From Candidatus Multivoradales bacterium (GTDB lineage Bacteria; Acidobacteriota; Thermoanaerobaculia; Multivoradales; J023), in assembly GCA_965248925.1 (NCBI GenBank), contig CBDFLE010000005.1, positions 1,184,001 through 1,248,000 of the forward strand: DNA of 64,000 nucleotides, given 5' to 3'. Under the pieces are notes generated by a model. It saw only the letters and a program-made list of their open reading frames with translations, had not been told where the DNA came from and made no database searches. The translations under genes and the position numbers were made by a program. Positions 2,908-64,000 of this stretch are shown in pieces (position 1 is the stretch's first letter; each line of letters begins with the position of its first letter).

Positions 2908-3017
2908 GTCATGGCGTGGTTGGCGAACAGGGGCGGCGACCGCCGCCTGCTCAGCAGGCGGCGTAGCGCAGGCGCCCAGTAGCAGGGCGAGAGTCGCCGC
3001 TCTAGAGTGCAGAGGGG

Positions 3018-3698: not shown

Positions 3699-3869
3699 TG
3701 GGCAGCCTCCAAGAAATGTCGAGACGCGCTCGACTAGAGTAGCTTATCAAACCCGCTGTCTGCGAAATCGTACAGGCGGGCTGGTCTTTTTTCTCTGTTC
3801 GGCGGTGGTTCGGGGTCAGCGGTAACAAATCTTTCAGGCTGGCGTTGATCTTACTAAGAGGCCAACAAC

Positions 3870-13840: not shown

Positions 13841-15492
13841 GTTGCCACTGGCGAAGTTGCCACCGGTGGTGGTGGTGCGGAAATGGCCAGGCCATCGAAG
13901 TCCGAGTGGGTGACCTCGCGGAACTTGTCGCCGTCGTCGTGGTAGATGACTTTGCGGTACTTCATCCGGTGGTTGCGGTCGGCGTAGGTCCCGGATGGAC
14001 CGTCGTTCTCATACTCCAGGAAGATCGAGCGGCGCTTGCTGCCGCTGGCCACCGAGCCCTGGTAGATCTCTTGCGACAAGTAGGGCGGGCTGTTGTTGTA
14101 GTAGTCGTTGGTGCCGGGTGTGCAGCGGGTGAAGGGCAGGCCAAAGCCTTGGCGATTAGCGCCCGCGGAGTTAAACCAGTGCTTCGTGTCGTTGCCTAGC
14201 GGGTCGGTCAAGGTGAGCGTGTGGTAGCAGGAGATCTGGCCGGGACCGAGCACTCCTTGGGGATCGTAGTCATAGATCCAGGTGCCGTGGGGCGAGTTTG
14301 GATAGTCGCTGTCTTTCAAGAACGTCGACTTGGTGGCCACGCCGGTGCCGATGTTGGCCCACTCCCGGCCCTCGGGCACATCTGGGCTTTGGGCATGAAA
14401 ATCGATCTGTTGGTACCGCCAGCCGAAGGCGCCATCCGTGGGAAGACGGAGGAACTTGATGCCGCCCGAGAGCTTCTCTCCCGGATTGTCGGTGCGGTAG
14501 TAGTCCATTTGGTAGAACGAGTCGTCGGGCAAGACCAGGCGTTCGAGCAGGCGGACGCCGGAAAGTGTGTCCCCTTCGGGCACACACGAAGGCTGGGCGC
14601 CTTGGCGCTCCAGATCGACCGGGCCGGAGTAGATCAGATCGTAGACGGCGCTTTGATTGTTGAAGGCGGCCAGGGTGACTTTCTCCAGTCGGCCGGCGGT
14701 GAAATCGAGGGAATGACTCCTGTTGGCGGAATCGGTGACGCTCCAATCGCCGCCCGAGGCGTAGGCTATCTTGACCCAATGGCCGAAGCGGTCGAGCATC
14801 TTGGTCACCCGCCAATCGAAGCTGGTGTGGCTGATGTTATGGAATTCATGCATCTCACCACTTGGGAATTCCACCGTCCGGCAATCCTGGTCGAGCAGAT
14901 TCGACGGCGTCTCGCAGGGGCTCGATGCGAATGGGTAGTAGCGCATTCTCAGGTAGGTACTGTCGCGGGTGAACCAGGTGTTGGGCTGGGTGCCGGCGGG
15001 CGGGTAGGTGCCGCTCTGGGCCGGGTGGAGGAAATCGTGGAAGGCGTGTTGCCCGCCGTCAGGGCTCAAATAGGAAAACCCGCTGAAGGGTGGCGCGGGA
15101 TTGCCGCCTTCGGAGCGCACCAACTGGCCAAGATTGACCCGCCACCCCCAGCCAGAATTCGCATCGAGATCTTGAATCGGCAAGTTGTAGGAAACCAGCA
15201 TCTGGTTGGGCGGCGTGCCCTCGGTGCAGCTCTGTTGGTCGTCAAAGTCCCAGCCGCTGGAGTTGTAGGTCAGGGTGAAGCCGTAGCTCAGAGTGGGACC
15301 CACCGGGTAGCTCTGGCCGAGGGGCAGGCGGAGCGACAGATTCCCCGAGAAGAGGTTGATCGAGTCGATGTCGCCGACTTGGAAGGCGGTGTCGGCGGTG
15401 ACGCCCCGCTGGTGGCTCTGGGGCTGTTGCGCGGCGGTCGGCCCGGCGAGGGCAACGTAGAGAAGTGAGGCGATGAGAATTTTCTGTTGCAT
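13792..15492 (-). CDS. Rhs protein, N-terminal part with Sec signal peptide (joined with 10532-13840 gives ~1650 aa)
   Basis: MQQKILIASLLYVALAGPTAA signal; DSINLFSGNLSL..LTYNS..GWGW (DUF6531-like entry). Adding one G restores FDGLGHFRTTTTGGNF. Confidence 0.85.
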   Translation of the reverse strand: MQQKILIASLLYVALAGPTAAQQPQSHQRGVTADTAFQVGDIDSINLFSGNLSLRLPLGQSYPVGPTLSYGFTLTYNSSGWDFDDQQSCTEGTPPNQMLVSYNLPIQDLDANSGWGWRVNLGQLVRSEGGNPAPPFSGFSYLSPDGGQHAFHDFLHPAQSGTYPPAGTQPNTWFTRDSTYLRMRYYPFASSPCETPSNLLDQDCRTVEFPSGEMHEFHNISHTSFDWRVTKMLDRFGHWVKIAYASGGDWSVTDSANRSHSLDFTAGRLEKVTLAAFNNQSAVYDLIYSGPVDLERQGAQPSCVPEGDTLSGVRLLERLVLPDDSFYQMDYYRTDNPGEKLSGGIKFLRLPTDGAFGWRYQQIDFHAQSPDVPEGREWANIGTGVATKSTFLKDSDYPNSPHGTWIYDYDPQGVLGPGQISCYHTLTLTDPLGNDTKHWFNSAGANRQGFGLPFTRCTPGTNDYYNNSPPYLSQEIYQGSVASGSKRRSIFLEYENDGPSGTYADRNHRMKYRKVIYHDDGDKFREVTHSDFDGLAISAPPPPVATSPVATCARARPSTTRIAAPT

Positions 15493-48305: not shown

Positions 48306-49187
48306 ATGCGTCCTGGAAAGCAGTTAGAGGAGGTCATTGCGAACCTGGAGAGAGTGCTGACCGCGGAATCCGGAGCCGCAATCGAATCTCCTGGTTACCT
48401 AGAAGATAGGACTACCGGACAGCGAAGGGAGTTCGATGTCCTCGTTCGGAGAAGCCTCGGGCACAACGAGATGATTGTGGCTATCGAATGTCGAGATCGG
48501 TCGCGCAAGATCGGCTCGCCACAAGTTGAGGCGTTCTTGACAAAATGCAGAGATGCCGGAGTCCACCAAGGAGTGATTGTCTCCACTAGCGGCTTCTATA
48601 AGCCCGCGAGGGACAAAGCGACTGCCAAGGGAATCAGATGCCTAGAACTCACCGAAGTGACGAGATTCGATTGGTTCTCTGCAGTCGGGATGCAGACCCG
48701 GCGAAGAAAGCCAACTGCCATTACAGCAACGCTAGAGGCGGTTGGTCTGGACTTGTCTGACCTTGCTGCCGGCTACGCCCTAGAAGATGCATCTGGGCAA
48801 GCTGTCCATATGCAGAGTTTACAGGAAAGGGTTCAAGCCGCTGCTATTGACGGACTACGAAGAACGCCTTGGACATGCGCCCCAGGAGAGACTCCACAGC
48901 CAGCTGAGATTGAACTTCAAGCTCACGGGTTGTCAATAATCCGAGAATCTACTGGCGAACGAACTCCAGTATCAAAGATCACATGCACTATTGAGTTTGA
49001 AGTCTCGAATACGCCACTTCCGACGAAGCTGGTTCGGTATAGGGACATCACCAACAACGAAAAGGCTGCCGAGGGTGTAGTCACAGATTTAGAAAAAGCC
49101 GGGTTCAAGGGAACTGCAATCCTTTTGAAGGACCTAGCAAGCGGCGACGGACCTATTCTCTTCCTGAAGCGCCGAGAGGTCGAGTAG
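48306..49187 (+). CDS. Mrr-cat-type PD-(D/E)xK restriction endonuclease domain protein
   Basis: LEE.IA, REFDVL, AIECRD..RKI...VEAF, GVIVSTSGF..PA; lower GC than flanks. Confidence 0.85.
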   Translation: MRPGKQLEEVIANLERVLTAESGAAIESPGYLEDRTTGQRREFDVLVRRSLGHNEMIVAIECRDRSRKIGSPQVEAFLTKCRDAGVHQGVIVSTSGFYKPARDKATAKGIRCLELTEVTRFDWFSAVGMQTRRRKPTAITATLEAVGLDLSDLAAGYALEDASGQAVHMQSLQERVQAAAIDGLRRTPWTCAPGETPQPAEIELQAHGLSIIRESTGERTPVSKITCTIEFEVSNTPLPTKLVRYRDITNNEKAAEGVVTDLEKAGFKGTAILLKDLASGDGPILFLKRREVE

Positions 49188-49844: not shown

Positions 49845-50519
49845 CTACCAAGCTCCCCGCCGCTGCAAGCTCACCCAACGCCCTGCGCCGCCGAGGAAAA
49901 GGTGGTCGACAAGATTCACCCCCACGAACTTGCAGGCCTTGGCCATCTGACCAGTGAAGAGCAGGTCATCGCTCGACGGAGTTGGATCGCCGCTGGGGTG
50001 GGAGTGCCATAAAACAATCCCCGACGCCGACTTCTGCAACGCTGCTCTCAGGATAGGGCGAGGCTCCGCGGCCGCCCTTCGAAGGGTTACAGCGAAGATC
50101 TCCAAATCAGCGATGAGCCGGTGGCGAACATCGAGCAGCAGAGCGCCCATCACCTCTTGATCCGGCCTCAGATACCGGAGGGCCAGGTACTCGGCGACTA
50201 CCTGCGGCTGATCAAGCAACCTACGCTTCTCGGCTCTGAACCGAGCCATGCGGCAGCCAATCTCAAAGGCGGCAGCAAGGGTCGCTGACTTGGCGGGGCC
50301 GACGCCGGGTTGGCTCTTGAGCTGGCCGTTGGCGCTCAGCAGCGATCTTAGGTCGCCATAGTCCTTGAGAAGCGCCTGTGCGACTTCCAGGGCAGACTTG
50401 CCGGCGCCGCCGGTCCGCAGCAGAACGGCGACAAGCTCGGCGTTGGACAACGACTTCGGCCCATGTCGTAAGATACGGCCACGCGGATCCTCATCTCTCG
50501 GCGTCTGTGGCGCGCTCAT
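49845..50519 (-). CDS. radC: RadC family JAB-domain protein
   Basis: PR..I...G...LSNAELVAVLLRTG, GVGPAK, HSHPSGDPTPS.DD, LVDH. Confidence 0.93.
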   Translation of the reverse strand: MSAPQTPRDEDPRGRILRHGPKSLSNAELVAVLLRTGGAGKSALEVAQALLKDYGDLRSLLSANGQLKSQPGVGPAKSATLAAAFEIGCRMARFRAEKRRLLDQPQVVAEYLALRYLRPDQEVMGALLLDVRHRLIADLEIFAVTLRRAAAEPRPILRAALQKSASGIVLWHSHPSGDPTPSSDDLLFTGQMAKACKFVGVNLVDHLFLGGAGRWVSLQRRGAW

Positions 50520-50921: not shown

Positions 50922-53900
50922 ATGCAATTGATAAACCTTCCTGAGTTCAGAACATCACAAGCAGGCCGAGAGACTGGCGGAGCCAAGAAAAAGCAGCCTC
51001 GCAAGGCTCTCACTCTTTGGCGCAGGCTAGTGCTCTGCTTGGCCGTCGTTGGAGTGCTCGTATTTGCGGGGGTCGCCTTGGCCGCCGATCCGCCCCTTGA
51101 GCTGTCGCGAGCCACGTTAGAAACCCAGATCCTCGACCAGATAACCCGCGGCCAGTCGATTGACGAACCGCTGGCAAGCTGGCGGTCAACCGTCCCCGCT
51201 TCGGCCAACGAATCACCCACCAAGGCTACGCCTAACAATCTCGCCAAAGCCCTGCTGGAGCTGCGTCGCTCTCTACCTTCAGAATCCAAGGCGACCCTCG
51301 ACGCCCCCACCCTGGCCATCGCCTGGGAGAGCTTCGAGGCTTGGGATCTACTGCAACGCGACCACTTCGAGCGTACCGCCTCCCGCCTCGCCGCGGCTGG
51401 CCTTGGCGGTGAGCCGAGCGCTCGTCTTGATCAAGTGCGCAACGATTGGCAAGCCTTCAGCGACCGCCTGAAAGTATTGCTCGGTGAGCCCTTGGCCGAG
51501 CTGAAAGCAGCACCGAAGTCCAAGCGCCCAGGGCGAGAGCGGAGACTCGCCAGAGCCGCCCAAGCCGCCGCCGAGCTGCTCGACACCTACCCGACGGCCC
51601 AGGCCCGCCCCACCCTGCGAGCCACCAGCCTGCCCTACCGCCAGCTGCGCTTGCCGGCCCGCCTGCCGGTCACCGAGCCAACCGTCACACCGAGCTATAG
51701 CGACATCTCAGACCCTGACTCCGTTGCCGCCGACTTCGAGCCCGGCACTGCTGCGCCGCTCGCCGATGAAATCCTTCTGAAAGCCGAGGCCCTGGGCTAC
51801 GACTACGTGGCGATCTACGAGTTCGTCCGCCATCAGATCGCCACCGAGTGGTATGCCGGTAGCCTGAAGGGAGCCCTCGGTACCCTGCGCCAGGGAGCCG
51901 GCAACGATGTAGATCAGGCCAGCCTGATGATTGCCCTCTACCGTGCCAGTGGGGCAGCGGCACGCTACGTCAGTGCGGTGGTCGAGCTGTCTCTGCCCTG
52001 GCTCAGCACCCAGATGGGCATCGACGATGGCGCGGCGGTGGCCGACTATCTGGCCCGCGCCGGTATTGCTCGCCGACCGGTGATCCGGGGAGGACGGGTC
52101 GCCGCTTTCGAGGTCGAGCACACTTGGGTCAGTGCCCACGTTCCTTACAGCAACTATCGCGGCTCGGTGGTCGACCTCTCGGGCCGCAGCTGGATACCGC
52201 TAACACCCGCGCTGGAGCCGGTGGAACGGCAGCCCGCAACGCAAGCGCTAGCGGTGATGGGATTCGTGGCCGGGGATTTCGTCACCGAGATGCTGAGCAC
52301 GGCCCAGCTCGACACCCCCTTGAGCTTGCTACGCCAGCGAGTGGAGCAATACTTGCTGGACAACGATGGCGGCACCTACGCCGAGCAGCTCGGCTCGGTA
52401 GTGGCCGCCGGCCGACCCCTCGGCCTGCTGCCCAACGGCTTGTATCATCCGGTTCTGGCGGTAACCTTCGAGGGCGCTGAGCTGCCGGCAAGCGCCCGCC
52501 ATCGACTGCGGCTGATCGCTCGCAGCGAGCCCATGGCGGGATCAGCCGTGATCCTCGATCACCAGCTCGACCTGCATCAGGCCCTCGGCCACCGGCTGAC
52601 CCTCTCCTATGCCCCGGCAACTTCGGACGACCATCTGGTTATCAACCTTTGGGGCGGCTTGGCCGAAGTGCCGCCCTTCCTGGTCCGGCTGCGACCGCAG
52701 CTGTATTTGGACGGCCGCCGCATAGCCGTCGGCGAGCCAGTGGACGCCGCCAAGCTGCACCGCTTCGAGGCGGTGGTGGAAGGGCCGTTCGGCAGTCAAG
52801 AAATCAGCCAGACCGTTCTCTCAGGCGCCTACCACGCCATCGCCGTGGGTGGTCAGCGATTCCAGGCTGTCGGACTTGCCGACAACGATCCCAGCGACGG
52901 CGAGCAGCTCGCCGCCCGCCTGCTGAGCGGTCTGGCCTATGGCTACGGTGCCGAGTGGGACGCTGCCGAGACCGAACTCGCCGGCCTCTTGGCCGTTAGC
53001 CTAGCGCGCCCTATTCCAGCGTTGGTCATCGCCAGCAACTCCTTGCGCACCGAGCTGCTGCTGGGAGTGCCGCAACGGCTGATCTGGGAAGGCGTCACTC
53101 TTGACGCCGCCCTGCGTATTGCCGAGCCCGTTGCTCACGATGGCTCAACCGAAACCGCCGCTGACTGGATGCGACTGGCAGCCCTCGAAGGCTCGGCGCT
53201 GGAGCATGCGGTCTTTGAGCGCCAATTCCAGGTCGGCGCGATCTCGGCTGACAGGGGCTTGGCCCTGGCTCGCGACTCGGGCATCGAAGTGCTACGCCTC
53301 GACGCCGCCAACCTAGCCGCAGAGCTGGCGGGCTTGAATCATCCCCAAGCCGTCCGCGACGACGTGGTCACCCGCATCGCCCAGGGACTGACCGTCGCGA
53401 TCCCTCGCCAGCCAATCAGCGCCACCGCCTGGACAGGCTCGGTCTGGCGAGCCGAGGATCCGGTGAGCGGTGCGGCCGGTTACTTCCTCTCCGGTGGCCT
53501 GGCCGGCGGCGCCACCGTCGAAACCCCCGAGAACTGGCTGCTCGACTTCCTCGCCGACGCCCTCTCGGCACCCATGTCAGACGCCCCCAACACCGACCCC
53601 TTGGCCGGTGTCGAGCTAATCGTTGCCCAAGGCAGCGATGGCCAACTCGGCACCGTCGACCGGGTCTATCGCCACCCTCTGGCCGTGCGGGTGATCGACG
53701 AGAGCGGCCGGCCGGTCAAAGGCGCCGAGGTCACTTTCTATATCTGGGCCGGTGACGGCCAACTGATCGACGACCAGAACCTAGAATCCACCAGCCTCAC
53801 TCTCCGCACCGACGCCCACGGCATGGCCCGCGTCAAACTACGTTCAGGAAAGCTGACCGCCGCCAACCCTCTCTTCCTGCGCCGCTATGGCAGCGACACT

Positions 53901-56900
53901 TTCCAGACCCGAGTGCTAGAGAACGTCGTCGAAGCCGCCGCCAGCTCCAGGCTCGGCGCTCTCACTTTGCGCCAGCCGATCTCCGCCGTAGCCTTCCCCC
54001 AAGACCCTGCCACCCTGCGCCGCACCAACCGCGACGACAGCCAGGGCACGAGCCTCACCGTCCTGCACGGTCTGTGGCAAGACACCCTGTCGATAGCCGT
54101 CGAAGACCCGCACGGCAACCCAATCGCCAACCAAGACGTGGCCTTCACCAACAGCGCCTTCGTTGCCCCCGGCATCAACTGCCCCAACGCGCCGCCAGAC
54201 CCCGTCCCAGGCACTTTCTTCGACGCCACGATCGACAACATCACCGGCGGCTTTACCGGCTGTCCGCTGACCACGCCGCGCTATGGCGACTGCGGTAGCT
54301 CCGGTCTGACCCTGAGAACGGGCTCCTCGGGCCAGGTCTCTGCCGGTTTCATCACCGGTCCAAGCGCCATCGCCAGCTACCCGGCGACGGTCAGTTCGGC
54401 CGGTCTGCCGCCCCTGTCCTACGAGTACAGCGTCACCTTCATCAACAGCACTGGCCTCAACCAAGACCACTGCGGGCCACAGACAACGCGCTTCGTACGC
54501 ACCTTCGGCTTCTTCGTCGATGCCGCCGGCCAACCCAGCTCGGCAGTACGAGCCGGCCGGGTCTACGACACGCCAGTGGGAGTCGAGGCTCTCGAATGGG
54601 TGCCCGAGTGCCAGGGATTGGCGATCGCCGATCCCAGTCCGGGGGGACCGCTGTTCTTCCTGGTCTGCAATGAGCTGCAAGGCGAGTGGCGCCCGGCCTA
54701 CTTCTATCAAGACGACACCCATCCGCTGTCCGTCGTGCTACTGCCCGCCGGCGCGGCCACAGCACCGCAGATCGACAATCTCCTCGGCCGCGTCGAGAGC
54801 CGTCTGCAAACAGGCCTCGACCCGGCCCTGCACAATGCACGGGTATCGCTGCCGGTGCTGCCCAAGAGTCCCTTTCTCGACGATTTCAACGGTGAAGTCA
54901 CGTTGCTCGAAACCCCAGAGGACTTTGCCGCCGTCGGCCTGCTCAACCTCGCCCTCGGCCAGATCGACAACATCGACCAGGAGATCGGCAGCTTGTGGGG
55001 AGTGCGGACTCAGATCACCAGCTTCGAGCCGCCTATCGTGTCCCTCAACGACGACGGGCAGGCCGCCGAGTCGGTAGCGGTGAGGTACCAGATCGAGCCC
55101 ATCGAATATCAGCCCACTGGTGCCTTCGTCGAGCTGCTTCGCGACGGCCAGCGGGTCGAACTCCTGCGCGGCCAGAGCAATGCCGGCGAAGGGCTCGCTG
55201 AGCTGCCCCGCGGTCTCGAACTCGACCTCGACGGCCAGTGGCAGGCCGAGCTGGTGCTCAATCTCGACACTCCCATCGAAGTGCGTGGCGACCCTGTGCC
55301 GCTGCCCCTAGAGCAGCAGCTCTTCGCCGACTACAGCCGCGCCCTATCGGTGCGGCAGGATGTCGACCTGGTCAACCAGCGCCGCTGCGTTCAGCCGACC
55401 CTCTTCAGCTTTGAGCTCAACCGCCCGGCCGAGGTCACCCTGATCGCCCGCCGGATCGAGAGCGTCGAGACCGACGGCAGCCTCAACACCGCCGCCGCCA
55501 TCACCCTGATCGAAGCCGAGATGTTTGCCGACGGCGAGCACGGCGAGCCGATCAGCCCCACCGACCTGCCCCCCGGCGACTACCTGATCGAGCTGCGCGG
55601 CATCGACGCGGTGGATGGCTACGAGGAGGTCCGCGAGGTCCGGCTGAGTTCCGATTGGGACATCTCCGAAATACTGCCCATCGGCCATACCTTGGTCCAC
55701 GGTGTCGACCTTTTCGATGGCCACCTCACCATCAGTAGAACCGATCTCGAAATCCCCGGCCGCGGCATCGGCCTGGCGCTGCGGCGCACCTATTCGAGCC
55801 TGGCGGTGTCGAGCGGCGGCCCCTTCGGCCTGGGCTGGAACCATCGCTACCAGTCGCGAGTCGTGATCACCCCCTGCGGCGAGGCCATCTTGATCGGCGG
55901 CGAGGGCTCGGGCCTGCGTTTCGTCGACGATGGCCAGGGCGGACTACGCCCGCTGCGCGGCTCTCACGGCACCCTGCGGGCCGACCCGGCTGACGGCGGC
56001 TTCGACTTCTTCACCACCTCCGGCAACCGCTTCCACTATCTCTTCTCGGAAGACAGCACCTGGCATTTGGCCTGGACCGAAGACCCCAACGGCAACCGCA
56101 CCACCCTCACCTACATCGCCGGCGCCGATGGCCCCCTGCTGCGTCAAGTCACCGACTCCAGCGGCCGAGCCCTGGTCTTCGACTACCGCCAGGCCAGATT
56201 TGCTGCCTGGGATGGACCGGTGATCGAGCACATCACCGGCCCTGGCGGCCTGGCGATGAGCTTCGATTACGACCGTTTCGGTAACCTGATCACCGCCCAG
56301 CGCGACAACCAGAGTCGCATCGAGCGCTACACCTACCAGACCCAGCCCAACGCCGGCCTGGAGCTGCGGCCGGTGATGACCTCGACGACCAATGGTCTCT
56401 CAGGCGCCAGCACCCATTACACCTGGCAGAGCGGCGCCGTGGCCATCGAAGCCGGATTGTCGATCGATGCCTTGCTAGTAAGCTCGATCACCCACCCTGA
56501 AGGAGGAGTCGCCACATTCGCCTTCGATCAGCAGCTGCTCGGCAACGCCGCCACGCTAGAGCTAGAGACCACCGTCACCGATCGCCGCCAGCGGGCCACC
56601 ACTTACCGTCTTAACCGCTACGGCAGCCCGGTGGTGATCACCGACCCCATCGGCCACACCACCCGCAAGACCTGGACCCCCGGCGACGTGCTGATGCTCA
56701 GTCGCACTGACCAGAATGGGGTCGTCACTAGCTTCGAGTACGACCAGCACGGCAACCGGACCACCGAGCGCGTCCAAGTCACCGACGAGACCGGCACCCT
56801 GGTCACCCGCGAGCGCCTGAGCACTTACTTTTCGCCCTCAGCCTTTATCGCAGAAGGCATCAAAGACCACCTCAAGAGCCACATCGACGGCCGTGGCCAC

Positions 56901-59900
56901 ACCACCCAATTTGAGTACGACGCCCAGGGCAATCTGACCCGCCAACACATCACCGTCATCGATGCCGAGGGCGCCGCCTCCACCGTCGAGAGCCGCCACA
57001 CCTACTACTCAAACGGCGACCGCCGCACCACCACCGATGCTCGCGGCCACGCCAGCACCTTCACTTGGGACACTTTCGGCAACCCGGCCACCGTGCGCGA
57101 CCGCGAAAACGGCCTGACCACCTTCGCCTTCGATTCACGAGGCCGCCAGCTCAGTCAGACCGACCCCAACAGCCACACCACCCGGCTGGCCTACGACGAC
57201 CTAGACCGCCTGATCCTGCGCACCCTCGCCGACGGCAGCGTAGAGCAGATCCAGCACGACGACATCGCCCGCACCCGCACCCAGATCGATCCCCGTGGCC
57301 ACGCCACCCGGACCAGCTTCGATCTAGAAGGCCGGCCCATCGAGATCGTCAACGCCGAGGGCGGTCAGCAGCAGATGGAGTACGACCCAGAAGGCAACCT
57401 AACGCTAGAGAGCACCGTCTTCGACGCCACCACCCTCCGCCACAACACCCTGCTGGTTTACGACGACGCCGGCCGCCTGATCCGTCGCGAACAGCCCGAG
57501 GGCCGCACCACAGACCGAGAACTAGACCCAGCCGGCAACGTCCTGCGCCAGACCCTCGCCGACCGCGGCGACCCGAGCTTCACCCCCCGCGTCACCGAGA
57601 CCGACTACGACCGGCTCAACCGCCCCATCGAGACCCGACGCCTGCTCGACGCCGGCTTCATCGCCGGCCAGATCGCCTTCGATCTGGAAAACAACCCCGT
57701 CCACAGCACCGACCCTCTCGGCCGAGTGACGACGATCACATTCGACGCCCTCGACCGCGAGATCGAGCGCACCGAGCCCGAGTGGAAAGCCGGCACCCCG
57801 AGAGTCAGTCAACGTTTCTGGGACGGCAACGGCAACCTGATCAAGACGGTGCTTTTCAACGAGCCCGAAAACCAGATCCGCGAGACCACCTACGATCGCC
57901 TCAACCGCCCGATCCGCCAGCTCGACGCCACCGGCGAGCTGCGGACGATGGAATACGACCCGGCAGGAAATCTGACTGTCAAGATCGACCGCCGCGGCCA
58001 CCGCACCGAGCACCAATACGACGAACGCAACCGCCGCATCAAAACCACCGTCAAGCTCGCCGCTGGCAACGCCATCACCGAATTCACCTTCGATCCCTCT
58101 AGCAACCTGATCGAGCAGCTCCAGCCCAACCAGAACCGCATCACCCACACCTACGACCCGCTCAATCGCCGTCTGACTAGCAACGATCGCGAAGGCCAGC
58201 TCAGCCAGACCGGCTACGACGCTCGCAGCCTCCCCATCCGCCAAGAAGACGCCAACGGCAATGTCACCCTCAGCCAGTTCGACGGCCTCGGCCGCATGAT
58301 CCGCCAGGATCTGCCCGAAGACCGCACCGTCCTACAAACCTACGATGTCGCCGACAACCGCCTAGCCACCATCAACCCCCGCGGCCACGCCACCACCGCC
58401 CGCTTCGACACCCTCGACCGCCAGATCGAAGAACTCTCGCCAGCCCCCTTCAACTACCTGCGCCAGATGACCTGGGACGACGCCGGCAACCTGCTCTCAG
58501 AAACCGACCGCCGAGGCAACACCACCGAATTCACCTACGACGACCTCGACCGCCGGATCACCCGGCTCGAACCACCCGTCCTGAGCGACGGCTCCGAGGT
58601 CCGCTACCTCACCACTTGGGCCCACGACACCGCCGGCAACCAGCTCACCGAGGTCGACCCCCGAGGCATCCTCACCGAGAACCGCTGGGACGCCGAGAAC
58701 CGCCGCACCCACACCCTGCGCGCCAATCTGCTCATCGAGCAGGTTGAGTTTGATGCCGCCGGCAACCGAACGAAAATCTGGGATGCCAACCGCAACCTAG
58801 CCCAATTCGACTATGACGAACGCCAGCTCATCATCACCGAGCGCCGCCCCCTCAGTGCCACCACAGTCCACACCCTAGACACCATGGGTGATGTGATCCG
58901 CCGCCAAGACCCAGCCGGCAGATTCACCGATTCCACCTTCGACTTCCGCCGCCGCCAGCTCACCAGCACCCGCTTCGGCGCCGGCAACCGACCTGAAACC
59001 ACAGCCTTCACCTACGATTCACAAGGCAACCGCACGAGCAAGCTGCGCCCCGAGGGCAACGCCTGGACTTACAGCTTCGACGGTGCCCACCGCCTCACCG
59101 AAGTCGAAGACCCCGACGGCGATCTCACCACCTACGAACTCGACCAAAACGGCAACCTCATCACCCAGATCGACGCCGCCAGCCAACCCACCACCTACAC
59201 TTGGGACGAGCTAGACCGCCGCACCTCCATCACCCAGGCCGACGGCGCCACCGAGACCTTTACGTTCGACGAAAACGGCAACCTCGCCCAACACCGAGAC
59301 GCCAAAAACCAACTCTTCACCCGCACCCACGACTCGCTGAATAGGGAAATAGCCCTTCAGTACCCAGAAGACCCCTCCACCGACGACGACCTCGAGCAGA
59401 TCACCACCACCTGGGACGCCAACGGCAACCACCTCCAAACCGCCGAACACTTCACGCAAACGGGGGAACTCACCACCACCCAGACCTGGGACGATTTTGA
59501 TCGCCTAGCCACCCGAACCGACCGCTGGGACAACACCCTCATTCACGGCTACGATCTCAACGGCAACCGCACCCTGCTCATTGACCCGGCGGGCATCCCA
59601 ACCACCACCACCTTCGACGCCCTCAACCGAGTCGACACCGTCACCACCCCCGGCGGAGTCACCGACTATCAGTACCTCGCCAACAGCCTGCTCAGCCAGA
59701 TCGACTATCCCAACGGCACCACCAGCACCTGGCAATACGATCCCGCCAACCGCATCAGGGACCTCGACCATCGCCAGAACACCGCCCTGATCTCCAGCTT
59801 CCAATACCAGTACGACCGCAACGGCAACCGCACTGAGCAGATCGAGACCCACACCAGCCAGCCAGCCGAAACCACCATCTACGCTTTCGATCTAGTAGAC

Positions 59901-61640
59901 CGCCTCGCCACCGTCGCCTACCCCGAGAAAACCGTCACCACCACCTACGATGCTGTAGGCAATCGCATCTCAGAATCGGCCGTCGACAACGGCGCCACGA
60001 CGATCACCGACCGCCTCTACGCCTACGACAATCGCCACCGATTAGTAACTGTCACCGACCAACTCGACGCCGCCCAAGCCGTCACCTACACCCACGATGC
60101 CAACGGCAATCAGTCAACCCGAACAAGAGACAGCCAGCTAACCCAGCTGACCTACGACACTCGCGATCAGCTCACCCAGGTCATCGAAGCCAGCGTCATC
60201 CAAGGCACCTACGCATTCGACGCCACCGGCCTCAGAGTCCAAAAGCTAACTGCTGAAGGTGAAGCGAGATACGTCTACGATCAGCAAAGCGTCCTGACTC
60301 GAGAAGACAACGATGGAATCACCAAATTCAACTACGCCCCAGATCGCTTGCTCTCCGTCGATGACCCCGTAGAAGGCCGCGCCTACTACCTCCACGACGC
60401 CCTGGGCAGCGTCGTCGGGCTGATGACCCCCGGCGGCAGCCTGCTCGGTCGATATCGCTGGGACGCCTGGGGCAACAAGCGGGCCTCAGTTGAAACCGAC
60501 GCCAACCCCTTCGGCTTCACCGGCCATGAGCACGATGAGGAAACCGGGCTGATCTATGCCAAAGCGCGGTTCTATGATCCGGAGCTTGGGCTGTTCCTGA
60601 GCAGCGACCCGGTCGAAGGCGATTTGCAGAATCCGCCTAGCCTGCATCGGTATCTGTATGCCTTCCAGAATCCGACCGTCTATGTAGATCCCGATGGTAG
60701 AGCGCCCCTCGGCCTAGACTTTGCGCCTCTGCTCATTCCCGTCCAGGACGCATACCGCCAATCGCTCGCCGAAGAGTCGCGATTCCTGACCAATGCAGAA
60801 TTCGACGCGCTACCCGACGCAGAGCGAGAGCGCCGCATCGACGAAGAGTTCGATCGGCTCATCAACGGTCGCCCCTCCACGCCTAGCGGCACCACCAGCG
60901 AGCAAACCAAGACTCAGGAAGGTGGGGTGATGGCGGCCCTCGACAACTTCTTCATCGACCCGTTCAGAAGGCTTGGCGAATCCGCACGGCGCACTATTGA
61001 GAGCTTCAAGAAGTTCGGCGAACTTCCCGAACGTGATATCCGCAGCACTGAAGAGCGCGCAATAGGCGACACCGTCGCCGACGTTAACCAAAATCTCCAG
61101 CAGATCTCCGAATCCTCCGCAGAAGCCGGGGCCGTCATCGAGAACGCCGTCCAGGCTGGGCTCGATGCAGAAGAGGCCGTAGGCCGTGTTACCCTCGGCG
61201 GACTAGGCATTGGGCTAGGGACGAGGCTGATAAAGAAGGGCGCGCGGGAGGGGGCTAGGGGTACAGTCAGGCGTTTTGGCACGACGAAGCCTGGTCCGCT
61301 AAAGCCAAGCACTGCGGCTACTTTCCGCAGTGGCTCCTATACCGAGCTGACGCTGCCAGAGCCTGTCACGCTGTACCGCGTCTACGGTGGTGAAGCCGGA
61401 AAGCTCGGTCCTTACTGGACGCGTATCAAACCAGCTGGTCCTTTACAGTCCCAGCTCGACTCCGCGCTGCTGCCTCAGTGGGGCAACTCTGCAGACAACG
61501 TGGTGTCGATCCGTGTGCCTGCTGGGGCAACGATCTACGAAGGCTTCGCTGCTCCGCAATCCACAGGAGTTGGTCAGCTCCTGGGGGGCGGGAGCCAGGT
61601 CTATATTCAGCGGGTTGAACCGAGCTGGATCGTCCCCTGA
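50922..61640 (+). CDS. Giant Rhs polymorphic toxin: signal peptide + transglutaminase-like + Ig-like (Big_1) + DUF6531 + YD repeats + Rhs core + TNT/ART-like C-terminal toxin
   Basis: YAGSLKGALGTL...GNDVDQASL; VRVIDESGRPVKGAEVTF; GVDLFDG..DLEIPGRG..RTYSS..GPFGLGW; dozens of YD repeats; FGFTGHEHD.ETGLIY..ARFYDP..NPTVYVDPDG; tip LYRVYGG..WGN..VPAG..EG.AAPQ..GGG.Q.Y. Confidence 0.92.
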   Translation: MQLINLPEFRTSQAGRETGGAKKKQPRKALTLWRRLVLCLAVVGVLVFAGVALAADPPLELSRATLETQILDQITRGQSIDEPLASWRSTVPASANESPTKATPNNLAKALLELRRSLPSESKATLDAPTLAIAWESFEAWDLLQRDHFERTASRLAAAGLGGEPSARLDQVRNDWQAFSDRLKVLLGEPLAELKAAPKSKRPGRERRLARAAQAAAELLDTYPTAQARPTLRATSLPYRQLRLPARLPVTEPTVTPSYSDISDPDSVAADFEPGTAAPLADEILLKAEALGYDYVAIYEFVRHQIATEWYAGSLKGALGTLRQGAGNDVDQASLMIALYRASGAAARYVSAVVELSLPWLSTQMGIDDGAAVADYLARAGIARRPVIRGGRVAAFEVEHTWVSAHVPYSNYRGSVVDLSGRSWIPLTPALEPVERQPATQALAVMGFVAGDFVTEMLSTAQLDTPLSLLRQRVEQYLLDNDGGTYAEQLGSVVAAGRPLGLLPNGLYHPVLAVTFEGAELPASARHRLRLIARSEPMAGSAVILDHQLDLHQALGHRLTLSYAPATSDDHLVINLWGGLAEVPPFLVRLRPQLYLDGRRIAVGEPVDAAKLHRFEAVVEGPFGSQEISQTVLSGAYHAIAVGGQRFQAVGLADNDPSDGEQLAARLLSGLAYGYGAEWDAAETELAGLLAVSLARPIPALVIASNSLRTELLLGVPQRLIWEGVTLDAALRIAEPVAHDGSTETAADWMRLAALEGSALEHAVFERQFQVGAISADRGLALARDSGIEVLRLDAANLAAELAGLNHPQAVRDDVVTRIAQGLTVAIPRQPISATAWTGSVWRAEDPVSGAAGYFLSGGLAGGATVETPENWLLDFLADALSAPMSDAPNTDPLAGVELIVAQGSDGQLGTVDRVYRHPLAVRVIDESGRPVKGAEVTFYIWAGDGQLIDDQNLESTSLTLRTDAHGMARVKLRSGKLTAANPLFLRRYGSDTFQTRVLENVVEAAASSRLGALTLRQPISAVAFPQDPATLRRTNRDDSQGTSLTVLHGLWQDTLSIAVEDPHGNPIANQDVAFTNSAFVAPGINCPNAPPDPVPGTFFDATIDNITGGFTGCPLTTPRYGDCGSSGLTLRTGSSGQVSAGFITGPSAIASYPATVSSAGLPPLSYEYSVTFINSTGLNQDHCGPQTTRFVRTFGFFVDAAGQPSSAVRAGRVYDTPVGVEALEWVPECQGLAIADPSPGGPLFFLVCNELQGEWRPAYFYQDDTHPLSVVLLPAGAATAPQIDNLLGRVESRLQTGLDPALHNARVSLPVLPKSPFLDDFNGEVTLLETPEDFAAVGLLNLALGQIDNIDQEIGSLWGVRTQITSFEPPIVSLNDDGQAAESVAVRYQIEPIEYQPTGAFVELLRDGQRVELLRGQSNAGEGLAELPRGLELDLDGQWQAELVLNLDTPIEVRGDPVPLPLEQQLFADYSRALSVRQDVDLVNQRRCVQPTLFSFELNRPAEVTLIARRIESVETDGSLNTAAAITLIEAEMFADGEHGEPISPTDLPPGDYLIELRGIDAVDGYEEVREVRLSSDWDISEILPIGHTLVHGVDLFDGHLTISRTDLEIPGRGIGLALRRTYSSLAVSSGGPFGLGWNHRYQSRVVITPCGEAILIGGEGSGLRFVDDGQGGLRPLRGSHGTLRADPADGGFDFFTTSGNRFHYLFSEDSTWHLAWTEDPNGNRTTLTYIAGADGPLLRQVTDSSGRALVFDYRQARFAAWDGPVIEHITGPGGLAMSFDYDRFGNLITAQRDNQSRIERYTYQTQPNAGLELRPVMTSTTNGLSGASTHYTWQSGAVAIEAGLSIDALLVSSITHPEGGVATFAFDQQLLGNAATLELETTVTDRRQRATTYRLNRYGSPVVITDPIGHTTRKTWTPGDVLMLSRTDQNGVVTSFEYDQHGNRTTERVQVTDETGTLVTRERLSTYFSPSAFIAEGIKDHLKSHIDGRGHTTQFEYDAQGNLTRQHITVIDAEGAASTVESRHTYYSNGDRRTTTDARGHASTFTWDTFGNPATVRDRENGLTTFAFDSRGRQLSQTDPNSHTTRLAYDDLDRLILRTLADGSVEQIQHDDIARTRTQIDPRGHATRTSFDLEGRPIEIVNAEGGQQQMEYDPEGNLTLESTVFDATTLRHNTLLVYDDAGRLIRREQPEGRTTDRELDPAGNVLRQTLADRGDPSFTPRVTETDYDRLNRPIETRRLLDAGFIAGQIAFDLENNPVHSTDPLGRVTTITFDALDREIERTEPEWKAGTPRVSQRFWDGNGNLIKTVLFNEPENQIRETTYDRLNRPIRQLDATGELRTMEYDPAGNLTVKIDRRGHRTEHQYDERNRRIKTTVKLAAGNAITEFTFDPSSNLIEQLQPNQNRITHTYDPLNRRLTSNDREGQLSQTGYDARSLPIRQEDANGNVTLSQFDGLGRMIRQDLPEDRTVLQTYDVADNRLATINPRGHATTARFDTLDRQIEELSPAPFNYLRQMTWDDAGNLLSETDRRGNTTEFTYDDLDRRITRLEPPVLSDGSEVRYLTTWAHDTAGNQLTEVDPRGILTENRWDAENRRTHTLRANLLIEQVEFDAAGNRTKIWDANRNLAQFDYDERQLIITERRPLSATTVHTLDTMGDVIRRQDPAGRFTDSTFDFRRRQLTSTRFGAGNRPETTAFTYDSQGNRTSKLRPEGNAWTYSFDGAHRLTEVEDPDGDLTTYELDQNGNLITQIDAASQPTTYTWDELDRRTSITQADGATETFTFDENGNLAQHRDAKNQLFTRTHDSLNREIALQYPEDPSTDDDLEQITTTWDANGNHLQTAEHFTQTGELTTTQTWDDFDRLATRTDRWDNTLIHGYDLNGNRTLLIDPAGIPTTTTFDALNRVDTVTTPGGVTDYQYLANSLLSQIDYPNGTTSTWQYDPANRIRDLDHRQNTALISSFQYQYDRNGNRTEQIETHTSQPAETTIYAFDLVDRLATVAYPEKTVTTTYDAVGNRISESAVDNGATTITDRLYAYDNRHRLVTVTDQLDAAQAVTYTHDANGNQSTRTRDSQLTQLTYDTRDQLTQVIEASVIQGTYAFDATGLRVQKLTAEGEARYVYDQQSVLTREDNDGITKFNYAPDRLLSVDDPVEGRAYYLHDALGSVVGLMTPGGSLLGRYRWDAWGNKRASVETDANPFGFTGHEHDEETGLIYAKARFYDPELGLFLSSDPVEGDLQNPPSLHRYLYAFQNPTVYVDPDGRAPLGLDFAPLLIPVQDAYRQSLAEESRFLTNAEFDALPDAERERRIDEEFDRLINGRPSTPSGTTSEQTKTQEGGVMAALDNFFIDPFRRLGESARRTIESFKKFGELPERDIRSTEERAIGDTVADVNQNLQQISESSAEAGAVIENAVQAGLDAEEAVGRVTLGGLGIGLGTRLIKKGAREGARGTVRRFGTTKPGPLKPSTAATFRSGSYTELTLPEPVTLYRVYGGEAGKLGPYWTRIKPAGPLQSQLDSALLPQWGNSADNVVSIRVPAGATIYEGFAAPQSTGVGQLLGGGSQVYIQRVEPSWIVP

Positions 61641-61642
61641 TC

Positions 61643-61957
61643 ATGTCGGCCATGTCCAACCACGATCTTGTTTTGGCACTCCAGGAGACAAGTTCTCTAC
61701 TGCGGAGCGTAGACGCACCCTCTTGGGCCGACAAGATCGATCAGATACTTGAAGCATGCGACCATGAACCCTCCTCTTGGACAGCCAAGAAACTCCTCTC
61801 ATGGTACGGCAGCATGGGGTCCTTCGCTGATCTCCTGATATCCGCTGTCAACGGCCACAACCTTGAGGAGAAGGACGAAGTAGCGCTAAACGATCGCCTT
61901 GACGATCTACGGGAACTCATCTTCGAGAAAGCAAGCCAGTTGGCTCGTGAGCAATAA
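61643..61957 (+). CDS. Cognate immunity protein (DUF6966-like)
   Basis: Starts 2 bp after the toxin stop; acidic; WA..., YGSMGSFADL motif. Confidence 0.75.
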   Translation: MSAMSNHDLVLALQETSSLLRSVDAPSWADKIDQILEACDHEPSSWTAKKLLSWYGSMGSFADLLISAVNGHNLEEKDEVALNDRLDDLRELIFEKASQLAREQ

Positions 61958-61997
61958 ATCCAAACCCTACCCAAGTAGGTGCAGGCCGTTTCGTAGC

Positions 61998-62021
61998 AGC
62001 CCGGCTTTGGTCGGGCTTTTG
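61998..62021 (+). terminator. Rho-independent terminator after the toxin/immunity pair
   Basis: agcccggc-tttg-gtcgggct followed by a T run. Confidence 0.65.
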
Positions 62022-62032
62022 TGTGTCCGGTC

Positions 62033-62370
62033 TCAGATCTCAGCGCCACGTAGGAAGGTGTCGATGGTTCTGAGAAGTGTGTCTTGCTGGTGCGGCGGCA
62101 ATTTTTCAATGCGCTGGACGCGCCGCAGCACTTTGCGACTGGGGATAGGCGTAGCATTGTTGGCTTCGATGCCGTCGATTCCGAGCATCTGATCAGTGGA
62201 GATGCCAAGGGCGAGGGCGATCCGTGCAGCCATCTCTGCAGAGACTCTTAGCTTGCCGCGCTCATAGTCGGAGACGAGGGCTTGAATGATACCGACGTTG
62301 TTGGCCAACTCGGTTTGGGTGAGCCCCCTCTTGCGCCTGAAAGTGGCAATCCTGTCTGCGAATTGGCTGG
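62033..62370 (-). pseudogene. XRE-family HTH regulator, 5'-truncated
   Basis: FADRIATFRRKRGLTQTELA..VGI.Q..VSDYERG.., C-terminal IEKLP..QQ..LL..IDTFL; no start codon upstream of helix 1 before an in-frame stop. Confidence 0.75.
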
Positions 62371-62384
62371 CACCTCGAAGAGTT

Positions 62385-63509
62385 CCGGTCGCCGGTGAGC
62401 ATTGGTACCGGCGTGAGCAAGATCCCCTGCCGGCCGAGGGTGCCGCTTACTTCGCCGCTGGCCAGGCCGAGACAGCCGAACTGTCCCAGGTGGTCGACCT
62501 CAGCGGCTACAGCGAAGCGATCGCCCGCGGCGAGCTGCTGCTGGCCTTCTCCCTCCACCTGCGGACCGCCGAGGAGCAGCCTTCGGACACCGCGCGAGTG
62601 GTGGTTGAGTACTTCGAGGAGGATGGGAATGTGCTGCGCGACAGCTTCGACAGCGGCGAGATCGTCAGTCCCTCAGAGTGGCTGCGGGTAGAGGATCTAC
62701 GCTTGGTGCCGGTCGGCACCGACCGAGTGCGGGTGCGACTGCTCAGCAACCGCCTGGAGGGCGACACCAGCGATGGCTACTTCGACGCCCTTTCCCTGCG
62801 GGTCATCCGCCAACCGGTGGTCGAGATCGACGACCTACGGATCGCCGAAGGCCACAGTGCCAGCGCGGTCGGCGAGCTGTCCGTCCGGCTGAGCTGCGCG
62901 ATCGATCGTCCGCTGAGCATCACTTGGGAAACCGTCGATGGCACAGCGACGAGCGGCGTCGACTACATCGAAGCCCGCGGCGCCCTGGAGCTGGCCAGTG
63001 GTACCGTCGGGGGTGTGATCGAGGTAGAGATTCTTGGCGATACGGAGCACGAGCTGCACGAGGACTTCTTCGTCGAGCTGCGGGAGATCGAGCCCGCTGG
63101 GCTGGCGATAGCGCCCCAGCCGCGGGGCCGGGTGAGCATCCTCAACGATGATTTCTGCGCTCGCTCGCCAGGCTATTGGCAGCACCACAGCGACCTCTGG
63201 CCATTGTCGGAGTTGGCGTTGGGCGACCAGCAGATCGATCAGAGCGGCACTCTGGCGCTGCTGCAATATGGCGGCTCGGACGCCGCCAGCAAGCTCGCTC
63301 GCCAGTTGATTACCACTGAGTTGAATCTGGCCGTGGGCTCCGATCCGCTAGACATCTTGGCAACCGTCGAAGCCGCCCATGCCTTCCTTGCAGACTGGCC
63401 GCCAGGCAGCCGCCCCAGAGGCCCAGACCGAGCCGAGGCCAACCGGCTAAAAGACATCCTCGACGCCTACAACAATCCCGGCTGCACGCCGGTTGCGGTG
63501 CTCCCATGA
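62385..63509 (+). pseudogene. 3' part of a Calx-beta-domain surface protein gene (5'-truncated)
   Basis: Jelly-roll-like LSQVVDLS..DGYFDALSL; Calx-beta TVDGTATSGVDY..GD.E.E.HEDF.V.L..ILNDD; RSPGYWQHH. The annotated N-terminus is only antisense XRE sequence. Confidence 0.75.
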
Positions 63510-64000
63510 ACTGCCCAACAACGCGGCCTCGCTTTGCTCGCAGCTTTCGGCGCTGGCTGACCAGCGCTGGAATTCTCCTGCTTGCCAGCGCCGTGCTTGC
63601 GACCGAGCCGCCTGCTGAGACTTCGCGCACCGCGCTAGAGACACGAATCCTCGACCAGCTAGCTCGCGGCCGGTCGATCGAGGGGCCGCTGGCGAGCTGG
63701 CGTTCGACCCGTCCAGTCTCGACCGAGGAATCGCCCACAAAGACTGCGCCTACCAGCCTCAACGAAGCGCTGGTAGAGCTGCGCCAGGCCCTACCCTCGA
63801 AGGCTAAGAGCCGCCTTGACACCTCTGCCCTTACTGCCGCCTGGGAGAGCTTCCAAGCCTGGGACCTGCTGCAAGGCGACCGCTTCGAACGCACCGCCGC
63901 CCGCCTCGATGCGGCCGGCCTCAGCGGCGAGCCCAGAGCTCGTCTAGAGCAGGTCCGCGGCGATTGGCAAGAGTTCCACGACCGCCTGAAGACCCTGCTC
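63506..64000 (+). CDS. Second paralogous giant transglutaminase-like/Rhs protein, N-terminus (3'-partial; absent from ORF track)
   Basis: ATGA overlap with the Calx-beta gene; MNCPTT..signal..SRTALETRILDQLARGRSIEGPLASWRST..AWESFQAWDLLQ aligns with SRATLETQILDQITRGQSIDEPLASWRST..AWESFEAWDLLQ of 50922. Confidence 0.88.
   Translation, partial: MNCPTTRPRFARSFRRWLTSAGILLLASAVLATEPPAETSRTALETRILDQLARGRSIEGPLASWRSTRPVSTEESPTKTAPTSLNEALVELRQALPSKAKSRLDTSALTAAWESFQAWDLLQGDRFERTAARLDAAGLSGEPRARLEQVRGDWQEFHDRLKTLL

Follow-up and report, generated by a model that had tools for sequence, protein, structure and literature searches.

Copy A, a gene of 3572 codons in the 64,000-nucleotide stretch analysed here (the window; G000:C5:1184001-1248000, where G000 is the genome of a Candidatus Multivoradales bacterium), probably encodes a functional Rhs polymorphic toxin of the Sec-dependent, inactive-transglutaminase class, paired with an immunity gene. 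The locus is a real polymorphic toxin/immunity system and, since its architecture is already in print, it is not of an undescribed kind, for which a first-pass annotation of the window had put it forward as a candidate. Zhang et al. 2012 (Biol Direct 7:18; PMC3482391) predicted inactive-transglutaminase RHS polymorphic toxins computationally and, in the parts of that paper that treat the class, filed them with Sec/type II secretion system (T2SS) export. The annotation had named prior assignment of the architecture to a known secretion system as fatal to its proposal; such an assignment exists in part, as a computational one. G000 comprises 7.98 Mb in 6 contigs and is 96.9% complete. Domains were called with Pfam and NCBIfam, and AlphaFold2 (AF2) models were compared with 48161 chains using VIA-align and with Foldseek. 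The coordinates of all features are collected in Table 1.

The reading frame of copy A is intact, with zero internal stops across its 3572 codons. Its RHS repeats (PF05593, E 9e-98; YD_repeat_2x, TIGR01643, E 1.6e-72, nine stretches) lead into an Rhs-associated core (Rhs_assc_core, TIGR03696, residues 3181-3259, E 8.9e-20) that is of the aspartyl-protease type and carries the motif DPELGLF...DPDGR. With a cage-length repeat array and a DPxG core, copy A is a Rhs/YD polymorphic toxin. PAAR, VgrG, TPS/FHA, SpvB and TcB families are all absent from its Pfam/NCBIfam matches, and the same searches detected no lipobox, beta-barrel, sortase or type IX secretion system (T9SS) signal. The long protein with a Rhs cage and neither PAAR nor VgrG, as first annotated, is therefore borne out.

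Evidence for a polymorphic toxin also comes from its paralogs. G000 holds six full copies, A-F (3543-3572 aa), and one 638-aa fragment. Identity among all six is 80-100% to about residue 3230 and then drops to 8-26% in the last ~200 alignment columns; the divergence begins directly after ...NPTV(Y/F)xDPDGR, and DPELGLF...DPDGR is present in 6/6. The tips, of ~310-330 aa, consist of a linker followed by a copy-specific end of ~110-150 aa, with one linker type in A, B and D, a second in E and F, and a third in C. At or just after the stop codon lies a small open reading frame (ORF) that differs per copy (104, 126, 81, 135 and 145 aa), B being set apart by an insertion sequence (IS) that overlaps its end and possibly alters its extreme C-terminus; a 124-aa ORF beyond this IS may be the immunity gene of copy B. 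Judged from these sequences, the six-copy set thus carries a variable toxin on a conserved body with a candidate immunity gene downstream, and the exchangeable tips that the first-pass annotation had attached to an adhesin-like, leader-bearing Rhs protein are found as six tips with six downstream ORFs. Pfam returned no family for the six tips and four downstream ORFs except for one chance-level match, and likewise none for the 124-aa ORF. From sequence patterns read by eye, our guess is that tip B is papain-like, tip C ParB-like and tip D RelE/ParE-like.

Identity among copies B-F is 94-100% for the first ~2400 residues and falls to about 80% for residues 2550-3150. Copy A is 49% identical to them in the first 150 residues, 83-91% to residue 1500 and 95-100% for residues 1500-2550. 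Nine of 30 relatives of G000 match strongly (E<1e-170), in each case at what is essentially a single full-length site, so the six copies in G000 represent a local amplification. The paralog that had been noticed starting at 63506 is copy B; read on past the window, it reaches 3552 aa.

The tip of copy A consists of the linker shared with B and D and a toxin domain at about residues 3467-3572, without a match to any Pfam family, TNT included. In 236 proteins (E<=1e-3) its last ~120 residues reappear, at 48-77% identity; among the best 120 of these, the carriers include fragments of 'filamentous hemagglutinin', a PAAR protein, and PT-HINT and pre-toxin-TG (PT-TG) proteins as well as other Rhs proteins, so this domain is a mobile toxin cassette. 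An AF2 model built from 33 sequences (mean predicted local distance difference test, pLDDT, 74.7) resembles Tne2 most closely (6b12; Z 10.5, root mean square deviation (rmsd) 2.3 Å, 101 of 119 residues aligned), followed by Tse6 (4zv4; Z 8.0) and Rhs1-CT (6xtd; Z 7.7); fungal NADases (Z 5.3-5.7) and TNT (4qlp; Z 4.7) are weaker matches. Only 5 of the 48161 chains reached Z>=5, and Foldseek gave a probability of 1.00 for both Tse6 and Tne2. The family alignment contains invariant R, R, Q, D, W and N columns. As modelled, tip A has the fold of the NAD(P)+-glycohydrolase/ADP-ribosyltransferase superfamily, from which we infer an enzymatic activity. The candidate immunity gene, which encodes a DUF6966 protein, begins 2 nt past the stop of copy A.

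Ahead of the cage, copy A carries what is predicted to be an extracytoplasmic module of ~1470-1580 aa. Its N-terminus, read by eye, is a basic stretch followed by 19 hydrophobic residues ending ALA|AD, and may be a Sec signal peptide or else a signal anchor. A hydrophobic leader is present, also by eye, in 6/6 copies; in B-F it is shorter and ends VLA|TE. Some 190 helical residues separate this leader from a transglutaminase fold, which Pfam matches as Transglut_core at residues 280-393 (E 1.6e-7). We modelled residues 230-1100 from 30 aligned relatives (alignment A1; pLDDT 88.8, predicted template modelling score 0.81). In this model residues 248-526 adopt a transglutaminase/cysteine-protease fold (3isr; Z 12.6, rmsd 3.7, 151 aligned), with further matches to PeiW, PeiP, TglA, factor XIII, TG2, TG3 and LapG; a sequence search of the same region against PDB sequences gave 0 matches at E<=1. 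We placed the catalytic Cys through the motif G-x-C-x-x-F-A, which we take to mark it, and the start of helix 100-113 of the AF2 model. At this position copy A has Asp (GND-VDQAS), and in a 10-member family alignment Asp is found in nine members and Ala in one, the His is kept in 7/10 and lost in 3/10, and the third triad position is variable. As the catalytic Cys is replaced and neither the His nor the third residue is conserved, we read the domain as a pseudo-enzyme, although it is the best-conserved block of the N-terminal half in that alignment.

The region after the transglutaminase fold (residues 527-889) is modelled with pLDDT mostly >85, and its only structural likenesses are the weak macroglobulin-array matches given below. 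It is followed by an Ig-like domain, for which Pfam gives a weak, sub-threshold Big_1 match (residues 919-977) and the structure comparison a clear one: residues 890-1027 match invasin/intimin Ig domains at Z 10.5-12.0 (1cwv, Z 12.0; 6tpl, Z 11.0, rmsd 2.1; 6tqd and 5n40, Z 10.6). The transglutaminase-like core and the Big_1 domain of the earlier annotation both hold up in the model. Foldseek with the whole 871-aa model gave multi-domain matches at low template modelling scores (about 0.1) to the macroglobulin (MG) arrays of C4, C5 and A2M; we did not accept these as homology to thioester proteins. Between the Ig domain and the cage, a C...C...GxCG pattern is conserved in residues 1028-1593 in the consensus of alignments A1 and A2 (the latter is the 7-row alignment introduced below with the locus set), and such cysteines are consistent with an extracytoplasmic location.

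In the text of Zhang et al. on this class (PMC3482391), the architecture is given as a signal peptide or transmembrane helix, an inactive transglutaminase, sometimes bacterial Ig domains, RHS repeats and variable toxins; in Table 1 of the paper it stands under 'T2SS/Sec-dependent system', where the entry on signature neighbour genes is '-', and the dead transglutaminase is proposed to anchor the toxin through peptide binding. Copy A falls within the class as outlined there: it has the leader (by eye), the lost triad residues, and Ig domain plus RHS, and the variable tips are common to both. Three differences stand out against that outline. The class is described without signature neighbours, whereas here a giant gene of ~6000 codons lies upstream in 46/58 loci; the transglutaminase domain follows immediately after the leader there, but after ~190 helical residues here; and it is always followed by RHS there, while here a sizeable class has the N-terminal module on DUF900 lipase-like or NlpC/P60-like C-termini.

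Two other groups of Sec-targeted toxins invite comparison. WapA of Bacillus subtilis and Streptococcus suis (compare PMC12704120) likewise has a Sec leader, a surface-attachment region and a Rhs cage, together with a polymorphic tip and an immunity gene, and like copy A it does not depend on a type VI secretion system (T6SS). However, WapA belongs to monoderms and uses cell-wall-binding repeats, whereas most of the present family comes from diderm phyla; it carries a 1500-aa transglutaminase/Ig module and has an outer membrane to cross. The teneurin-like proteins described by Raoelijaona et al. 2026 (Nat Commun 17:2753; PMC13018210) are, according to the available text, Sec-targeted YD-shell toxins with variable N-terminal adhesion domains, ~15-kDa polymorphic toxins and immunity genes in the operon; they are enriched in social bacteria, their delivery machinery is not obvious and the mechanism is stated as unknown. 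They are defined by a TTR / TIP / FN-plug / NHL / YD superfold. In copy A the YD shell and DUF6531 are present and Pfam reported no NHL or TTR domain, and the word 'transglutaminase' appears nowhere in the available text of that paper. PMC12096838, an apparent literature match, concerns unrelated proteins.

The differences from the better-known systems are those that the first-pass annotation had drawn, and they persist. Copy A shares a DUF6531 plug, a YD cage, a DPxG core and an exchangeable toxin with the T6SS Rhs effectors (Tse5, Rhs1/Tre23, RhsP) and with the TcB-TcC cocoons of Tc toxins, and its tip has the fold of the T6SS toxins Tne2, Tse6 and Rhs1-CT. Where T6SS effectors have a PAAR- or VgrG-interacting N-terminus, though, copy A has its leader and 1500-aa module. 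Tc toxins require TcA, and TcB with SpvB/mid-N/mid-C, none of which Pfam finds in copy A or in the giant. Contact-dependent inhibition (CDI) and other two-partner systems combine TPS and FHA repeats with a CdiB/TpsB neighbour; copy A is without TPS/FHA and no barrel gene adjoins it. TssC (PF05943) and Hcp (PF05638) gave 0 matches each in the 96.9%-complete genome, where assembly gaps leave their absence unproven.

The family extends far beyond this genome. A word-index search returned 16 relatives of the N-terminal module, all of 2527-3773 aa and all with Transglut_core, DUF6531 and RHS, a count that proved a large underestimate when residues 230-1100 were searched exhaustively against 1.84 billion representatives: 5627 matched at E<=1e-3, 2686 at E<=1e-10 and 1068 at E<=1e-30. 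The module spans >1000 clusters at 50% identity. Its closest relatives (50-53% identity) are in Acidobacteriota (Thermoanaerobaculia, Holophagales); other carriers are Gammaproteobacteria (Tahibacter, Dokdonella, Xanthomonas, Thiohalomonadaceae, the Olavius Gamma-3 symbiont, Thiodiazotropha), Betaproteobacteria (Paucibacter, Massilia, Undibacterium, Rhizobacter, Andreprevotia), 'Deltaproteobacteria', Nitrospirae and Elusimicrobia. For the gene neighbourhoods we assembled a locus set from one-genome-per-species contigs with alignment A2, in which 252 pattern matches gave 146 confirmed and 80 kept loci. At 32 of these 80 loci the gene is complete (>=3300 aa). Pfam matched 11 of the 32 tips and none of the other 21; the matches are TNT, EndoU, WHH/Colicin-DNase (2), LHH, Tox-REase-7, a Tle1-like phospholipase, PT-HINT, Stv and DUF6765 (2), so that known toxin domains sit in 7/32. 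Variable tips, anticipated from the window, thus recur in other genomes.

The second component of the first-pass proposal, a Calx-beta protein coupled to the paralog, had to be recast. The coupling is as described: the start of copy B overlaps the stop of a 407-aa ORF by 4 nt (ATGA). The ORF itself encodes a jelly-roll-like domain, one Calx-beta domain (E 3.3e-11) and a Cys-flanked helical end domain. It is a 5'-truncated gene remnant and no complete surface protein. Its residues 33-407 are 98.4% identical (blastp) to the last 375 residues of a 5979-aa giant, and the DNA homology (blastn) starts at window position 62384, 1123 nt upstream of copy B. The ORF's first 32 codons are therefore fortuitous. 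The giant has its sole full copy in G000 upstream of copy D, preceded by a nonribosomal peptide synthetase-like gene on the opposite strand and two unrelated ORFs. Remnants of it, 98-99% identical at the DNA level, precede copies F (1085 aa), C and E (154 aa each) and B (407 aa). Because these are such recent duplicates, no inference can be drawn that the remnants serve as functional small adaptor genes.

The giant begins with a signal peptide and an HExxH motif at residue 179 that is kept in 2/2 other N-termini available. It contains an alpha/alpha-toroid stretch like the squalene-cyclase C-domain (PDB 8zg5, E 1.5e-8), Ig-like domains by the dozen, four Calx-beta stretches, and CARDB, FlgD_ig, Big_13, Big_7, fn3, DUF11 and TolB-like propeller domains. 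Its CHU_C/T9SS-type matches are internal and coincide with FlgD_ig-type Ig domains, so we rejected T9SS sorting. It is this giant, rather than the 407-aa ORF, that is the conserved upstream partner. The sequence upstream of the toxin gene extends for >=5 kb in 58 of the 80 loci. Of these 58, 46 have a colinear giant homolog, on the same strand, as the direct upstream neighbour; they belong to Acidobacteriota, Gamma- and Betaproteobacteria and others. The homologs are 27-47% identical over ~600-1300 aa (E down to 0) and match giant residues ~2470-4700, and up to 5979 in Acidobacteriota. When the giant was compared with the rest of G000 by tblastn, only Calx-beta-level matches appeared, so the synteny matches are not generic Ig-domain noise. 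The junction is a 4-nt stop/start overlap in 7 loci and lies within 35 nt in 9 more, with start calls that are crude (the first start codon in the open frame); in several loci, and in one 6863-aa database protein, a single frame runs through both genes. In the giant homologs at L039, L041, L044, L054, L055 and L088, an extra C-terminal domain of ~250 aa (LGxAGxFNxFxxGxxxQxxSDxEGRxAAGG...) follows or replaces the Cys-flanked helical end domain, so the C-terminus of the partner is itself modular.

From these data we propose how the toxin may work. Copy A would be exported by Sec, and its N-terminal module would bind the target, or else keep the cage on the cell surface or beyond it. The tip, encapsulated in the cage, would be released by a cut at the core motif and reach the inside of neighbouring bacteria. 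There, tip A might deplete NAD(P)+ or ADP-ribosylate a substrate, while the DUF6966 protein would shield kin. Recombination between near-identical bodies may have shuffled the tips and amplified the gene to six copies. The giant, encoded immediately upstream in most genomes, could be a working partner in display, export or target recognition.

A stronger form of this last step would make the giant and the transglutaminase-Ig-Rhs protein a dedicated two-partner, T6SS-independent apparatus with the giant as carrier, fibre or translocator, functionally like TcA with TcB-TcC, and more than an adhesin that happens to be encoded next door. We consider this possible, although doubtful. The cross-phylum synteny (46/58), the tight or overlapping junctions and the 6863-aa read-through or fused form speak for it, as do the conserved HExxH, the ratio of one giant to six Rhs copies in G000, the tandem at L053/L054 with a giant at one only, and the 3' end of the giant that accompanies each of the amplified copies B-F. 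However, synteny indicates co-expression and not binding, the retained 3' ends are explained by recent duplication and are silent on function, the giant is missing upstream in 12/58 loci, and Tc-type domain families were found in neither the giant nor copy A at the thresholds used. A complex prediction for the C-terminal 375 aa of the giant with residues 33-560 of copy B scored 0.00, which is no answer and counts neither way.

Release in soluble or vesicle-borne form, by a T2SS or by lysis and not through contact-dependent display, seems unlikely to us. Zhang et al. filed the class under T2SS/Sec in the Table 1 cited above, G000 has three secretin genes, and no anchor motif was detected in copy A by Pfam/NCBIfam; yet a folded Rhs cage on a 1500-aa stalk would be very large for a T2SS substrate, and the Ig/invasin-like and peptide-binding-type domains suggest attachment. 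Still less probable, in our estimate, is a main role in kin recognition, social adhesion or predation in which the tips are discrimination tokens and not weapons, a role that has been proposed for bacterial teneurin-like proteins. The enrichment of teneurin-like Sec-exported YD-shell toxins in social bacteria (PMC13018210, available text) fits such a role, and so does the very large repertoire of G000, in which the Rhs-associated core (TIGR03696) occurs at 85 places and 29 of the 42 longer Rhs frames inspected have a signal-like hydrophobic start (12-residue Kyte-Doolittle mean >=2.0 within the first 70 aa). But the tips and immunity pairs are of standard antibacterial types, and the NHL and TTR domains of teneurin-like proteins were undetected in copy A.

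Several points weigh against our preferred reading of copy A as a functional Sec-dependent toxin with the giant as partner. The 19-residue hydrophobic stretch could be an uncleaved inner-membrane anchor. Tip A is modelled with only moderate confidence. A same-strand ORF of 74-221 aa starts -28 to +33 nt from the stop in 32/32 complete genes of the locus set; this count lacks a shuffled control, and GC-rich DNA often contains small ORFs. Twelve of the 58 loci have no giant upstream (L030, L043, L045, L048, L052, L053, L084, L086, L096, L099, L100 and L101), although in L099 and L100 the N-terminus of a giant lies downstream instead and L053 is the tandem second copy beside the giant-bearing L054. 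Not even a giant remnant is found on the upstream side of copy A; taken together, these loci and copy A indicate that the partner is not needed in cis. The Calx-beta/helical end at the C-terminus of the giant is conserved only in the Acidobacteriota subset. No outer-membrane translocator or barrel gene adjoins the toxin genes, and no genome search for TpsB was made. PAAR and Phage_base_V (gp5/VgrG-like) genes occur at two sites far from the toxin loci (C5:2068498-2086726 and C5:1884485-1885312); these pairs might be parts of a prophage tail or of an extracellular contractile injection system, which leaves room for some other kind of contractile injection system in G000. Finally, the literature searched yielded no experimental study of any class member.

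The N-terminal module is not confined to Rhs proteins. Many matches of 1950-2250 aa begin like copy A, with the leader and with the module as far as residue ~1465, and are without DUF6531 and RHS; of six such proteins examined with Pfam, five lacked DUF6531/RHS and the sixth was a truncated Rhs form. Putative C-termini in this branch are DUF900 alpha/beta-hydrolase-like (P0159 by Pfam; P0121 and P0165 by motif) and NlpC/P60 (P0141, by motif alone). More distant transglutaminase-module paralogs (25-34% identity) are encoded at G010:C607:7235-9577, G009:C22:49019-51364 and, in G000 itself, C5:592039-593913 (-), in frames of 7600-7810 aa and ~2250-2440 aa in the relatives and 1080 aa in G000, so the module occurs in further architectures.

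Tentatively, then, the giant and the ~1470-aa leader/transglutaminase/Ig module might form an unrecognised, widespread toxin-delivery system of diderms that is independent of T6SS, the type V secretion system and Tc. The module would be a generic carrier of Rhs-caged cytoplasmic toxins or uncaged envelope toxins (lipase-like, NlpC/P60-like), and the giant would serve display, outer-membrane passage or target recognition. How Sec-exported Rhs/teneurin-like toxins of diderms without a T6SS leave the cell and enter their targets is an open question in the available text of PMC13018210. As the family is present in cultured, non-pathogenic isolates (Tahibacter aquaticus DSM 21667, Dokdonella fugitiva, Andreprevotia chitinilytica DSM 18519, Massilia, Undibacterium and Paucibacter), the delivery question is open to ordinary genetics. 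Four points appear to be additions to the record: that the giant is a conserved partner, that the carrier module has a non-Rhs branch, that the six-fold amplification left remnants by which its duplications can be traced, and that a genome with 85 Rhs cores, mostly leader-bearing, gave no match to TssC or Hcp; the giant neighbour and the non-Rhs N-terminal module were not found in the available text of Zhang et al. or Raoelijaona et al., whose supplementary files may list them.

Table 1 Features of the toxin locus and its paralogs. Positions without a contig are window positions.
Feature	Position	Strand	Basis or remark
Mrr-type restriction-endonuclease-fold protein, upstream of copy A	48306-49187	+	
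RadC-like JAB protein, upstream of copy A	49845-50519	-	
Copy A, leader / inactive-transglutaminase / Ig / DUF6531 / Rhs polymorphic toxin gene, 3572 aa	50922..61640	+	
Leader, residues 1-55	50922..51086	+	By-eye reading of translation
Transglutaminase/papain-like fold, residues 248-526, predicted inactive	51663..52499	+	Pfam, VIA-align
Beta-sandwich and helical region between transglutaminase fold and Ig, residues 527-889	52500..53588	+	AF2 model
Invasin/intimin-type (Big_1) Ig domain, residues 890-1027	53589..54002	+	Weak Pfam match, VIA-align
Further predicted extracytoplasmic segment with conserved cysteines, residues 1028-1593	54003..55700	+	Family alignments
DUF6531 (Rhs N-terminal plug-type), residues 1594-1667	55701..55922	+	Pfam PF20148, E 2.9e-12
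Rhs/YD repeat cage up to Rhs-associated core	55923..60698	+	Pfam/NCBIfam
Variable tip, residues 3261-3572 (312 aa)	60702..61637	+	Paralog divergence, AF2 model
Candidate immunity gene, DUF6966, 104 aa	61643..61957	+	Pfam PF22294, E 2e-11
XRE-type helix-turn-helix ORF, 91 aa, at junction of A and B units	62033..62308	-	Pfam HTH_3, E 3.3e-5
407-aa ORF, 5'-truncated remnant of the giant's 3' end	62286..63509	+	
Copy B, 3552 aa	63506..64000, on to G000:C5:1258164	+	
IS transposase ORF (DDE_Tnp_1 and DUF4372)	C5:1258129-1259286	-	Overlaps last 36 nt of copy B
Giant, 5979 aa	G000:C5:2300306-2318245		Stop overlaps start of copy D
Copies D, E and F, in series	C5:2318242-2356514		Up to contig end
Copy C	End of contig C6		

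From a genomic perspective, G000 is a striking case of Rhs amplification: most of the full-length proteins among its 85 cores bear a leader, and TssC and Hcp are unmatched. The leader-bearing Rhs classes include proteins of ~5050 aa and of 1560-1740 aa. Orphan tip frames of ~365 aa are arrayed at roughly 8-kb spacing, and examples of these Rhs regions lie at C5:921625-966629, C6:3503486-3518856 and C4:161449-238009.

The Mrr-type and RadC-like genes upstream suggest that copy A lies at the edge of a mobile or defence-type island. A helix-turn-helix (HTH) ORF different from the one between A and B is found downstream of copy D. The cluster at C5:2300306-2357353 reads giant, D, immunity, HTH, IS-integrase debris, remnant, E, immunity, remnant, F, immunity and a KptA-like ORF, to the end of C5. 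Copy C, at C6:5199000-5218600, has the same KptA/Tpt1-like ORF downstream, followed by the 638-aa fragment (the seventh copy), and the ends of contigs C5 and C6 may be joined through these repeats. Elsewhere in the window, an unrelated Rhs frame of 1102 aa (10532-13840, -) has RHS repeats and a core at ~10979-11239, with no leader in the called ORF. A 566-aa ORF without a Pfam match (13792-15492, -) lies upstream of it and overlaps it, and the two may be one split or longer gene.

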